Shown here: piece by piece, positions 57,942-61,035 of the stretch
Layout of the letters: every line of letters begins with the position of its first letter
How positions within the stretch are numbered: the first letter of the stretch is position 1
Assembly (NCBI GenBank): GCA_052246995.1
Contig: JBQPWD010000004.1
Coordinates: forward strand, 115,945-179,944
Origin: Candidatus Bathyarchaeota archaeon
Lineage (GTDB): Archaea > Thermoproteota > Bathyarchaeia > Hecatellales > Hecatellaceae
Direction: 5' to 3'
Length of the DNA stretch: 64,000 nucleotides
The notes under the pieces: model-generated
The model's input: only the letters and a program-made list of their open reading frames with translations
Databases searched by the model: none
Told to the model about the DNA's origin: nothing
Position numbers and translations under genes: made by a program

Positions 57942-58049
57942 AACAAGTTAAAGCAAGCATAAATAACTAGTTGTTGCACCATCGAATTTGTAACTAATTA
58001 TGGGGTTAAATACAACCTCAATCCTCATTAACTTAACGAGGAATGTAAG

Positions 58050-58286
58050 TTGGAAAAAAGCCTTAAAAATAGGAAAACATGTTTAAAATGCAAATTTTAC
58101 AGTATGATTGGAGATGATGAAAGAAATAGGTTATCACTAGATTTATGCTTAAAAAAAGGACCCTTACCTGCAGCTTATACTTTTAGCGACTTATGCTGCG
58201 GTGGAAGTTCATGTATGTTTATCCTAACTCTTAAATGTTTGGAGGAAATTGCTGAGAAATGTGAGCATTACGAGGAAAAAGATTAA
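58050..58286 (+). CDS. possible small Cys-rich protein (doubtful)
   Basis: 78-aa ORF with a TTG start, 'CLKCK' and 'CCGGSSC'. I recognised no family, and it overlaps the long version of the next ORF. Confidence 0.2.
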   Translation: MEKSLKNRKTCLKCKFYSMIGDDERNRLSLDLCLKKGPLPAAYTFSDLCCGGSSCMFILTLKCLEEIAEKCEHYEEKD

Positions 58287-58299
58287 AATAAAAGGTGTA

Positions 58300-59850
58300 A
58301 TGCAAAAGTTGAAAGTTAAATATATAAGTGTGGTAAATGCTATGTATTCTTCAAAGCATATTCAAAAAAGTCAAGGAGAAAAAATAAACCAAGTGTGGTG
58401 GAGAAAATTGGTTGATATTTTAGCTTATGGTGCATACATTCCACTTTGGAGAATTAGCAGAGATGAAATTGCTAGAGGAGCAGGAGTTGCGTCTGCTGGT
58501 GGTGAAAAAGCTGTTGCTTCATGGGATGAGGATAGCTTATCAATGGCTGTTGAAGCAGGAGTTGACTGTCTAGGTGAACAGTTAAACCCTAAGGAAATTG
58601 ATGCCTTGTTTTTTGCATCCACAACCTCACCATTTAGGGAAAAACATGCAGCCTCAATAATAGCTTCAGCATTAGACCTTAGAAGGGATGTAACAACTAT
58701 AGATTTTGCGGATACGACAAAAGCTGGCACTACAGCAATAAAAGCTGCAGTTGACGCTGTTAAAGCTGGTTCAGCAAAAAAGGTTTTAGTTATAGCTGGA
58801 GAATGTATGGTTTTAACCCCGTCAACAGATTTTGAACAAATTTGTGGTGATGCTGCAGCGGCAATCTTAGTTGGTGAGGGGGAAGGTATAGCTAAGATAG
58901 GTGACTTTGTATCTACAGTAGAACCTATACCTGGACCTTGGAGGCGAAGTACAGATTTACTTCCACAAAGATTTGAGGCTAAACTTGATTTAAGATACGG
59001 TTTTATCAACTCAACCGTTAACACCATTCAAAACCTTCTTAAAAAGACTAACCTCTCAATCAAAGATTTCTCTAAGCTTGCTTTTAACGCTCCAGACCCT
59101 AGAGGCTATTTTGACGTCTTAAGAGGTATAGGAGCAGATATTAAGCAAATTCAAGATCCTCTATTTACAAATGTGGGGATAACTGGCGCAGCACATCCCC
59201 TACTTTTGCTTGTTGCCGCCTTAGAAAATGCAAAAGCTGACGAAAAAATTTTATGTGCAGGTTATGGAGATGGTTGTGACGCTTTTTATGTTGAAACAAG
59301 AAAAAAGGTTGAAGAGTTTAAGGGTAGTAGAAGAGCAACAACTGTTTACGTAAAATCTAAGCGTATGCTTACAACCTACGAGGAGTACTTAGATTTTAGA
59401 AAACTCCGTGAAAGAGCACAACCAGAATATCATAGAGCCTCAATTGTAAAGTATTGGAGGGATGAAAAGGCTCTTCTTCCATTTTATGGTATGAAGTGTA
59501 AGAACTGTGGTTCTGTAACCTATCCTATAAGCAGATGTTGTATTGTATGTGGTGCAAGGGATAACTATGAAGAAGTTAAAATTGCAAAACGTGGAAAAAT
59601 TTACACCTTTACTTTTGACTACCTATGTGGCCCTGGAAATGCTGTTGGAGAGTATGCTGCGCTTAACCCCGCAATAAGAGTTGTTGCGGATATGGAGGAT
59701 GGTTGTAGACTTTTCCTTGAACTTACAGACTGTAAACCTTCGCCCGAAGAAATATATATAGACATGCCTGTAGAATTAACATTTAGGTTGATGAGTGAGA
59801 AAACAAACTTTAGGTTTTATAGTTGGAGGGGGCGACCCGTAAGAGGTTAA
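58300..59850 (+). CDS. HMG-CoA-synthase-like domain fused to a DUF35 Zn-ribbon/OB-fold domain
   Basis: The N-part is colinear with archaeal HMGCS ('ILAYGAYIPLWRI', 'WDEDSLSMAVEAG', 'KAGTTA', 'YGDGCDAF'). The C-part is DUF35-like ('KCKNCGSVTYPISRCCIVCG' followed by an OB-like segment). The true start is uncertain: ATG 58300, GTG 58393 or TTG 58408. Confidence 0.75.
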   Translation: MQKLKVKYISVVNAMYSSKHIQKSQGEKINQVWWRKLVDILAYGAYIPLWRISRDEIARGAGVASAGGEKAVASWDEDSLSMAVEAGVDCLGEQLNPKEIDALFFASTTSPFREKHAASIIASALDLRRDVTTIDFADTTKAGTTAIKAAVDAVKAGSAKKVLVIAGECMVLTPSTDFEQICGDAAAAILVGEGEGIAKIGDFVSTVEPIPGPWRRSTDLLPQRFEAKLDLRYGFINSTVNTIQNLLKKTNLSIKDFSKLAFNAPDPRGYFDVLRGIGADIKQIQDPLFTNVGITGAAHPLLLLVAALENAKADEKILCAGYGDGCDAFYVETRKKVEEFKGSRRATTVYVKSKRMLTTYEEYLDFRKLRERAQPEYHRASIVKYWRDEKALLPFYGMKCKNCGSVTYPISRCCIVCGARDNYEEVKIAKRGKIYTFTFDYLCGPGNAVGEYAALNPAIRVVADMEDGCRLFLELTDCKPSPEEIYIDMPVELTFRLMSEKTNFRFYSWRGRPVRG

Positions 59851-59868
59851 GTGTGGAGGTGGAAAGGT

Positions 59869-61035
59869 ATGGGAAGTATAAAGGATAGAGTTGCGATAAT
59901 AGGGACAGGAGTTACAAGGTTTGGGGAGTTATGGGAAAAAGACCAAGAAGATTTGCTTGTAGAGGCTGTTTACGAAGCCGTTAATGAAGCAAATGTAGAC
60001 CTTAAAAGAGATGTTGAAGCTATATGGGTTGCAAACCAATATCATTTTACAGGAATGTCAGGTGCAACTTTTTCAGATTCGCTAAAAGTTTTCGGCAAAC
60101 CTGTTACAAGAGTTGAAAACTTTTGTGCTTCAGGTATGGATGCTGTTAGAAATGCTGCTTATGCCGTTGCATCAGGAGTATATGACATTGTAATCGCTTG
60201 TGGTGTTGAGAAGATTTTAGATTATGGTGGAAGAGGATTACCCTCAACTGGCGGCGAACTTCATCCAGTAATGGGTTTATCATCTGCACCTGCAATGTTT
60301 GCTTTAGCTGCAAACAGGGCTTTTAAGGTTTGGGGGTGGACTAGGGAGGACCTTGCACGAGTTGCTGTTAAAAACCATTATAATGGTGCACGACACCCTA
60401 AAGCTCACTTTAGAAGAGAAATAAACATTGAAACAGCTTTAAGAGCACCTATGATAGCTTACCCATTAGGCTTGTATGACTGTTGTGCAATGTCTGATGG
60501 GGCTGCTGCTGTTATTTTAACTAGACCTGAAATAGCTAAAAAATACGTTGGAGATAATTATGCAGTAATTAAAGCTTTAGGTATGGCTGTTGAAACCCTA
60601 GGGCCATGGTACAGGCCTGGTGAAAGCTTCTTAAGCTTTCCTGCAAATGTGAAGGCTGCTACTGCAGCATATAAGGAAGCGGGTATAGAAGATCCACGTA
60701 AAGAATTAGATTTTGGAATTGTTCATGATTGCTTTACCATTACTGAGCTTATAAATTATCAAGATATGAAGTTGTGCAAACTTGGTGAGGCTGCAAGCCT
60801 TATACGTGAGGGGGTTACAGCAATAGATGGAGATTTTCCGATAAATCCTGATGGAGGCTTAAAATGTTTTGGTCACCCTATTGGGGCTACTGGTTGTAGA
60901 ATGACTGTTGAACTTACAAGACAGGTGCTTGGTAGAGCTGAAGGGTTACAGGTTAAAAATGCTGAAGCGGGATTTGCTCATAACCTTGGTGGAGCATACA
61001 CTGTGGCAACAGTACTTATTGTTGGAAGAAGATAA
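59869..61035 (+). CDS. thiolase (archaeal/SCP-x-type acetyl-CoA C-acyltransferase)
   Basis: 'RVAIIGTG', nucleophile 'NFCASGMDA', 'GHPIGATGCR' and 'HNLGG'. The ATG is preceded by GGAGGTGG. Confidence 0.85.
   Translation: MGSIKDRVAIIGTGVTRFGELWEKDQEDLLVEAVYEAVNEANVDLKRDVEAIWVANQYHFTGMSGATFSDSLKVFGKPVTRVENFCASGMDAVRNAAYAVASGVYDIVIACGVEKILDYGGRGLPSTGGELHPVMGLSSAPAMFALAANRAFKVWGWTREDLARVAVKNHYNGARHPKAHFRREINIETALRAPMIAYPLGLYDCCAMSDGAAAVILTRPEIAKKYVGDNYAVIKALGMAVETLGPWYRPGESFLSFPANVKAATAAYKEAGIEDPRKELDFGIVHDCFTITELINYQDMKLCKLGEAASLIREGVTAIDGDFPINPDGGLKCFGHPIGATGCRMTVELTRQVLGRAEGLQVKNAEAGFAHNLGGAYTVATVLIVGRR

Follow-up and report, generated by a model that had tools for sequence, protein, structure and literature searches.

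In the archaeal complex of thiolase, 3-hydroxy-3-methylglutaryl-CoA (HMG-CoA) synthase (HMGCS or HMGS) and DUF35 protein, the DUF35 protein bridges the HMGCS and thiolase dimers, and both enzymes share a CoA site, as summarised by Liao et al. (Nat Commun 2026;17:2196, PMC12960953). These authors recorded 1,030 bacterial loci that combine HMGS with an acetyl-CoA acetyltransferase (ACAT) plus DUF35, 1,001 of them without secondary-metabolism neighbours. Their representative from Pseudomonas fluorescens consists of a fused HMGS-DUF35 protein devoid of the catalytic tetrad and an ACAT in which Cys, HDxF and GHx are retained. The complex formed neither HMG-CoA nor acetoacetyl-CoA and instead cleaved acetoacetyl-CoA, and mutating the His of HDxF left it nearly inactive in this cleavage; such loci were treated as bacterial "evolutionary intermediates" with no pathway assigned (PMC12960953). 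Here we analysed a 64,000-nt stretch of DNA (hereafter the window) from a Candidatus Bathyarchaeota archaeon (contig JBQPWD010000004.1, positions 115,945 to 179,944, forward strand). Two adjacent plus-strand genes in the window, encoding an HMGCS-like protein fused to DUF35 and a thiolase, have every sequence-level feature of the fused tetrad-less ACAT/HMGS-DUF35 type. The pair probably encodes a complex in which the thiolase is the only catalytic subunit on a non-catalytic HMGCS-DUF35 platform, working most likely in the thiolytic direction.

Other DUF35-dependent systems are related more loosely. In the acyltransferase PpATase (PhlACB), PhlA, PhlB and PhlC are all needed for a functional enzyme; only PhlC residues act on or contact the substrate, PhlA is without the Cys and Glu, and the PhlA cavity is continuous with the PhlC active site (PMC6392133). 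In the thiolase/DUF35 fatty-acid-synthase (FAS) complex of S. acidocaldarius, the thiolase works in the condensing direction (bioRxiv 10.1101/2024.07.05.601840).

An HMGCS-DUF35 fusion without catalytic tetrad next to an intact thiolase

The two genes and their parts are as follows.

58408-59850, plus strand: HMG-CoA-synthase-like/DUF35 fusion gene, 480 residues, likely TTG start, stop included
58408-59412, plus strand: HMGCS-fold domain, residues 1-335, without the E-C-H-N tetrad (Foldseek, alignments)
58621-58623, 58717-58719, 59086-59088 and 59179-59181, plus strand: codons of T72, T104, N227 and I258 at the tetrad columns
59413-59481, plus strand: low-confidence linker, residues 336-358 (pLDDT below 50; gap in the 6esq alignment)
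59482-59847, plus strand: DUF35 module, rubredoxin-like zinc ribbon and OB fold (Pfam, 6esq_E)
59869-61035, plus strand: thiolase gene, 388 residues, archaeal/SCP2-type, catalytic residues intact (NF004810, PDB matches, motifs)
60124-60126, 60724-60735 and 60871-60876, plus strand: thiolase codons of Cys86, His286-Asp287-x-Phe289 and Gly335-His336

A sequence-only reading of this DNA had assigned the 5′ two-thirds of the first gene to an HMGCS-like domain and its C-terminal part to DUF35, and both assignments hold. The archaeal HMGCS equivalogs of NCBIfam cover the first two-thirds of the fusion (residues 55-385 of the 533-residue frame), with scores under their cut-offs (NF003274 / TIGR00748, 201 versus 244 and 152 versus 353 bits). 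In a phmmer search of the PDB, the fusion aligned end to end with the HMGCS chain of the complex from Methanothermococcus thermolithotrophicus (6esq_I, E 3.6e-26), followed by PhlA and MucA, and its C-terminal 120 residues with the DUF35 chain 6esq_E (E 7.9e-13); BbsA, PhlB and ChsH2-DUF35 were further matches of the latter module. The 6esq HMGCS alignment ends about 15 residues before the DUF35 alignment starts, and the two modules are joined by a linker of about 20 residues. The AlphaFold2 model of the fusion has a mean pLDDT of 76, with most of the thiolase-fold core above 85 and residues 336-358 below 50. Given this model, Foldseek returned the HMGCS of the archaeal complex as the top match (6et9_I, E 1.4e-29, TM-score 0.90 on the target, root-mean-square deviation 2.3 Å), then PhlA and MucA. 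Pfam identified ACP_syn_III, zf-ChsH2 and OB_ChsH2_C, and the four zinc-ribbon cysteines (Cys364, 367, 378 and 381, at 59497-59550) are invariant in 190 family sequences.

The E-C-H-N tetrad of archaeal HMGCS is replaced in the fusion by T72, T104, N227 and I258, as revealed by phmmer and by independent MAFFT alignments. At the Glu column GSESHPY becomes ASTTSPF (Glu to Thr), at the Cys column EFACKAGT becomes ADTTKAGT (Cys to Thr), at the His column FHQPN becomes FNAPD (His to Asn), and at the Asn column GNTYS becomes GITGA (Asn to Ile). The first three substitutions had been read by eye from the sequence, and alignment, named beforehand as the check that could overturn them, places no Glu, Cys or His at these columns; the fourth tetrad residue, Asn, is lost too. 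The columns can be trusted because PhlA shows C/G/Q/D there in the same alignment, which are the mut4 substitutions named in PMC12960953, and because 6esq_I and 12 of 13 non-fused HMGCS-type proteins of relatives give E-C-H-N. These 13 comparators comprised three-gene-operon, N-terminal-DUF35 and long forms, including the HMGCS of the genome itself; the exception is an unfused protein of the relative G017. Glu, Cys and His are absent from the first three columns in all 190 members of the fused family. The Glu column is occupied mainly by Thr (121) and Val (58), the Cys column by Leu (134) and Thr (30), the His column by Tyr (122), Pro (21), Ser (16) and Asn (8), and the Asn column by Ile (68), Asn (54), Val (20) and Asp (16). 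Within the family these columns are of average variability (column entropy between the 32nd and 75th percentiles), and their residues are mostly hydrophobic. Without Glu, Cys and His, the 480-residue fusion should therefore be incapable of HMG-CoA synthesis.

The downstream protein carries Thiolase_N and Thiolase_C_1 in Pfam and passes NF004810 (acetyl-CoA acetyltransferase, PRK06157 type) with 532 bits against a cut-off of 403. Its motifs Cys86-Ala-Ser (CxS), His286-Asp-Cys-Phe289 (HDxF) and Gly335-His336-Pro (GHP) verify the earlier statement that the next gene is a thiolase with intact Cys and His. Its best PDB matches were 7yvy and 4yzo, with 6esq_A third and BbsB (7pxp_C) also matched; it scores 197-234 bits against archaeal ACAT and BbsB, versus 92-99 bits against PhlC. 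In 54 of 71 related loci a thiolase lies directly downstream of the fusion on the same strand, most of the remainder being cut by contig ends, and Cys, HDxF and GHP are kept in all 53 thiolases found directly 3′ of a fusion gene. Furthermore, in each of 52 pairs the thiolase is closer to its counterpart in the window than the fusion is (mean identity 48% versus 39%), as would be expected if the catalytic subunit were under tighter constraint than its partner.

A second, tetrad-bearing operon in the same genome

Because the genome holds a tetrad-bearing HMGCS operon elsewhere, the window fusion is a paralog and not the HMG-CoA synthase of the organism. A search for a canonical HMGCS, which the sequence-only reading had proposed, found a protein of 515 bits with GSESKPY, EFACKGG, FHQPN and the full tetrad, encoded in an HMGCS-thiolase-DUF35 operon on another contig (C5); the fusion is thus not the sole HMGCS homolog. 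The thiolase of this mevalonate operon (G000:C5:136829-137983 = L001:2584-3738) has Asp for the catalytic Cys (VEAG[D]ASG) and HDSS for HDxF. The genome accordingly combines a live HMGCS and a Cys-less thiolase with a live thiolase and a dead HMGCS, and has two further thiolases with Cys, HDCF and GHP. Across 24 Bathyarchaeia operons (relatives L092 and L106-L125, own operon included), the operon thiolase is without the Cys in 20 (D, Q, S or A instead) and retains it only in G014, G019, G024 and G039. An obligate pairing of the fusion with the Cys-less operon thiolase is not supported among these 24 relatives: the Asp thiolase occurs without the fusion module in no fewer than four relatives of the same family whose genomes are nearly complete (G005, G006, G007 and G009; 90-96%).

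Comparison with described complexes

As judged from the features described for it, the P. fluorescens pair resembles the window pair in its single HMGS-like/DUF35 polypeptide, tetrad loss, absence of polyketide synthase (PKS) or non-ribosomal peptide synthetase (NRPS) neighbours, and adjacent ACAT with Cys (CxS), HDxF and GHx. The window protein differs in being archaeal and in coexisting with a tetrad-bearing HMGCS/thiolase/DUF35 operon; the gene order in the window is fusion, then thiolase. The arrangement is not new: it belongs to a very large family of thousands of bacterial and archaeal proteins, and has been described and assayed in bacteria since January 2026. The archaeal complex (6esq) is the closest solved relative of the HMGCS and DUF35 modules and the third closest for the thiolase, and its thiolase motifs and zinc ribbon are retained in the window pair. 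In contrast to that complex, the window HMGCS domain has lost the tetrad, is fused to DUF35 and falls below the NCBIfam cut-offs. Since the tetrad is absent, no HMG-CoA would be made and no pull exerted on the condensation.

PhlACB (5M3K/5MG5) and MucABC (SmaATase, 9VBO) use, as we propose for the window pair, tetrad-less HMGS-like and DUF35 proteins as non-catalytic partners of a thiolase-fold enzyme with the only active Cys. They differ in a thiolase without HDxF, a remodelled acceptor pocket, separate subunits and a location in polyketide or NRPS clusters. In the benzoylsuccinyl-CoA thiolase BbsAB (7PXP), the steroid aldolase Ltp2-ChsH2(DUF35) (6OK1) and the S. acidocaldarius thiolase/DUF35 (KT/DUF35) FAS core, an SCP2-type thiolase-fold enzyme that acts on acyl-CoAs has a DUF35 zinc-ribbon/OB protein as its obligate partner, as would be the case in the window. 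For these three, which have no HMGCS-fold domain, either the substrates (aromatic, steroid) or the direction (synthesis) have been established.

Distribution and genomic context

A first homolog search gave more than 1,800 matches among 8,000 candidates scored, some of them from Hecatellales (76% identity), Syntropharchaeia, Alkanophagales, Deferribacterota and Thermodesulfobacteriota. When each species was represented by a single genome, a scan yielded at least 559 relatives, with 2-4 copies in several genomes; the best 80 of them come mostly from Dehalococcoidia and Desulfobacterota, and also from Binatia, Sporomusa, Methylomirabilis, Actinomycetes, Archaeoglobaceae, Bathyarchaeota and Alkanophaga. 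The proteobacterial branch (Azoarcus, Aromatoleum, Variovorax, Sphingobium and Rhodococcus plasmids) adds more than 6,500 proteins, and the homologs of Azoarcus, Variovorax and Sphingobium share the architecture at 25-30% identity over 97-100% of the length. Pseudomonas was missing from the plasmid matches of two tblastn searches and from the best 120 matches listed for a homolog search with the Azoarcus protein. In the phylum of the window the module is rare: 6 of the 41 close relatives and 8 of the 301 genomes sampled carry it.

In a quick maximum-likelihood tree all fused proteins form one clade (support 99). All tetrad-less proteins, PhlA and one unfused archaeal form among them, lie on one side of a branch with a Shimodaira-Hasegawa-like likelihood-ratio (SH-aLRT) support of 94, which is not decisive. 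The window protein clusters with those of Alkanophaga, a Bathyarchaeota metagenome-assembled genome (MAG), Archaeoglobaceae and one Binatia (support 95), and two other Bathyarchaeia copies are nested within Chloroflexota. We read this distribution as that of a putative mobile accessory module, transferred between the domains in one direction or the other.

The commonest Pfam-verified neighbours across the related loci are acyl-CoA dehydrogenase (ACAD, 17 loci), family-III CoA-transferase (12), AMP-forming acyl-CoA ligase (9), enoyl-CoA hydratase (ECH, 9), short-chain dehydrogenase/reductase (SDR, 7), MaoC hydratases (7 and 4), NMO-type enzymes and ACD-alpha-like proteins. Compared with the loci of PMC12960953, those surveyed here lie mostly in clusters of beta-oxidation type, and the RefSeq-annotated catabolic plasmid loci of Azoarcus and Rhodococcus likewise have beta-oxidation neighbours. 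In the window itself the pair is flanked by pyrI, pyrB, sufC, sufB/D and ACD-alpha-like genes, with an ACAD and two ACD-alpha genes within 7 kb and no PKS or NRPS gene among the window neighbours. In the three closest archaeal loci the pair stands beside ribosomal proteins, PheRS and beta-CASP. The genome (1.53 Mb) encodes 10 ACADs, 7 family-III CoA-transferases, about 13 AMP-forming ligases, 10 ACD-alpha-like proteins, 8 ECHs, 4 3-hydroxyacyl-CoA dehydrogenases (HCDHs) and 6 thiolase-fold proteins. Such an expansion of acyl-CoA enzymes is unusual for so small a genome, and only three of the six thiolase-fold genes have the full catalytic set.

Proposed function and alternatives

We infer that the fusion and the thiolase would form one enzyme complex with the thiolase as its sole catalytic subunit. 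Cys86 would form the acyl-enzyme, with the His residues of HDxF and GHP acting as in archaeal/SCP2-type thiolases. The DUF35 zinc-ribbon/OB module would clamp the thiolase dimer onto the HMGCS-fold dimer, as in the archaeal complex, PhlACB and MucABC, and the HMGCS-fold domain would complete a shared chamber and CoA site beside the thiolase active site. The favoured direction would be thiolytic cleavage of acetoacetyl-CoA or other 3-ketoacyl-CoAs, which is most likely because no live synthase pulls the unfavourable condensation; thiolysis also fits the very large acyl-CoA catabolic apparatus of this archaeon. The sequence-only reading had suggested a paralogous complex with a dead HMGCS-DUF35 scaffold serving acyl-CoA metabolism rather than mevalonate synthesis, and the sequence evidence together with the P. 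fluorescens biochemistry (PMC12960953) supports it.

Several observations weigh against this function. The only assayed example is bacterial, and the likeness to it would rest on described features. Many non-catalytic HMGCS-core residues are invariant in the fused family (YxPxxR, DED, Asp99, Glu143, Trp178 and Tyr324), and this domain may thus have a function beyond keeping the assembly intact. DUF35-bound thiolases can also condense, as shown by the S. acidocaldarius FAS complex and by SDR and MaoC genes next to some of the pairs. Finally, the pair sits among housekeeping genes here and in Alkanophaga, the Bathyarchaeota MAG and Archaeoglobaceae, not in a beta-oxidation operon, and the catabolic context is therefore mostly borrowed from bacteria.

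The condensing direction is the most serious competitor, although it seems unlikely: the thiolase on its dead scaffold would condense acetyl-CoA to acetoacetyl-CoA, for mevalonate or for fatty-acid synthesis of the archaeal type that is independent of acyl carrier protein. The Asp and HDSS of the genome's own operon thiolase, with the Cys lost in 20 of 24 operons of the class, would leave such a role vacant, the housekeeping neighbourhood of the archaeal subclade would suit it, and the Sulfolobus FAS thiolase/DUF35 provides a precedent for driven condensation (bioRxiv 10.1101/2024.07.05.601840). However, G005, G006, G007 and G009 manage with the Asp thiolase and no fusion, the module occurs in so few genomes of the phylum, and the genome has its two other Cys/HDCF/GHP thiolases as well as four HCDH and eight ECH genes that can supply acetoacetyl-CoA from 3-hydroxybutyryl-CoA. 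In addition, a dead synthase provides no thermodynamic pull, and the assayed bacterial complex made no acetoacetyl-CoA (PMC12960953). A more elaborate scheme, which we hold to be very unlikely, is that in this Bathyarchaeia lineage an ancestral channelling complex was duplicated and reciprocally inactivated, the C5 copy retaining a live HMGCS beside a Cys-to-Asp thiolase and DUF35 and the window copy a live thiolase beside the dead HMGCS-DUF35, and that the two half-dead complexes cooperate or mix subunits and feed mevalonate. In its milder version, the hydrophobic HMGCS pocket, re-lined with T/V, L, Y and I, may be a substrate-holding module that sets the chain-length specificity of the thiolase; if true, this would be where chain length is set in a widespread class of anaerobe thiolases.

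Could the HMGCS-like domain itself be alive, as a re-wired enzyme that uses other residues for a non-Claisen reaction? The clear purifying selection on the family, the many invariant core residues and the open connection of the PhlA cavity to the PhlC active site (PMC6392133) speak for it. Nevertheless, the four former catalytic columns vary to an average degree (T/V, L/T, Y/P/S/N and I/N/V/D) and are mostly hydrophobic, and the tetrad columns hold no alternative family-wide nucleophile. With the substrates tested, only thiolysis was detected for the P. fluorescens complex (PMC12960953), and in PpATase the substrate contacts come from PhlC residues only (PMC6392133). We therefore rejected the re-wired active site, which had been offered as the non-Claisen alternative in the sequence-only reading, as highly improbable. 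Least credible of all is a role in secondary metabolism, with the pair acting as a Friedel-Crafts C-acyltransferase like PhlACB/MucABC and acetylating a small-molecule acceptor. After archaeal HMGCS, PhlA and MucA do match best in sequence and fold, and all tetrad-less proteins share one side of the SH-aLRT 94 branch; but the window thiolase keeps the HDxF that PhlC and MucB have lost, scores far higher against archaeal ACAT and BbsB than against PhlC, and is joined by a fused rather than separate DUF35. Because HDxF is kept and no PKS or NRPS genes lie nearby, this assignment was rejected. A pseudogene reading of the fusion was rejected as well.

The practical value lies in the correct annotation of fused tetrad-less proteins. 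Automatic labels of family members read "hydroxymethylglutaryl-CoA synthase", "3-oxoacyl-ACP synthase III C-terminal domain protein" or "OB-fold protein", and because of such mislabelling, pathway reconstructions could wrongly include a second entry into mevalonate synthesis or a FabH. Beyond PMC12960953, the present survey places the fused tetrad-less module in archaea as well, alongside a tetrad-bearing HMGCS/thiolase/DUF35 operon, where its occurrence is rare and patchy and some of its copies branch within bacterial groups. The surveyed loci of bacteria and plasmids stand mostly with beta-oxidation enzymes, which argues for a working catabolic thiolase and not an orphan "evolutionary intermediate".

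Gene starts, spacer and transcription

Two further features complete the layout.

58249-58407, plus strand: in-frame 5′ extension (TTG 58249, ATG 58300), most likely an untranslated leader rather than coding sequence (homolog starts, 1-nt deletion, RNA contig)
59851-59868, plus strand: spacer of 18 nt with GGAGGTGG ahead of the thiolase ATG (sequence read directly)

The plus-strand open reading frame of the fusion extends over 58249-59850 and is directly followed by that of the thiolase, ending at 61035. The fusion gene most likely starts at TTG 58408, because its homologs are 470-483 residues long and start at the equivalent of this codon, a GGTGGAG motif lies 5 nt upstream of it, near-identical hot-spring contigs (runs X1 and X2) carry a 1-nt deletion at 58380 within the putative N-terminal extension, and the match of an RNA contig of run X3 to the window begins at 58399. 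On the same grounds, starts at 58249 or at 58300, the latter taken in the sequence-only reading, were rejected. In the X1 and X2 contigs the deletion is accompanied by an A>T change at 58379, both in an A-run. The gap between pyrB and the fusion gene measures 466 nt (57942-58407), and an Rfam search of this spacer gave no match. The thiolase most likely starts at ATG 59869, behind GGAGGTGG, and the 18-nt spacer with this element suggests a bicistronic, possibly translationally coupled unit.

In the sediment metatranscriptome X3, RNA contigs extend over 58399-61026 at a word depth of 9-42, versus 0-5 for pyrB and the suf genes on either side; depth of contigs gauges expression only roughly, and a 95-nt gap at the gene junction is unbridged by the listed contigs. 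The fusion and the thiolase are likely co-transcribed. The pair is among the better-covered stretches of the 6-kb region in X3. Runs X1 and X2 are labelled metatranscriptomic, but their contigs are 34-53 kb long with flat depth; they were treated as DNA and excluded from the expression evidence.

Other HMGCS forms in the class

Three relatives (G017, G030 and G035) encode proteins of 515-520 residues with an N-terminal DUF35 and an HMGCS with intact E-C-H-N (L097:853-2400(-), L104:737-2290(-) and L098:729-2291(-)), and the thiolase-fold genes adjoining them have Ser at the Cys column. Because these proteins keep the tetrad, fusion of DUF35 with HMGCS is not in itself a mark of inactivation. 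Besides this active form, the Bathyarchaeia genome G017 encodes the dead fusion as well as an HMGS-like protein that is unfused and tetrad-less (T/S/Y/D; L096:634-1782(-)) and lies beside a stand-alone DUF35 (G017:C2:147517-147915); the unfused protein branches between PhlA and the fused family. Longer tetrad-bearing HMGCS paralogs with extra C-terminal sequence (L100, L099 and L105, 508-515 residues; L101, 477 residues) are present in several relatives of the class, and in some of these they are the sole HMGCS homolog found.

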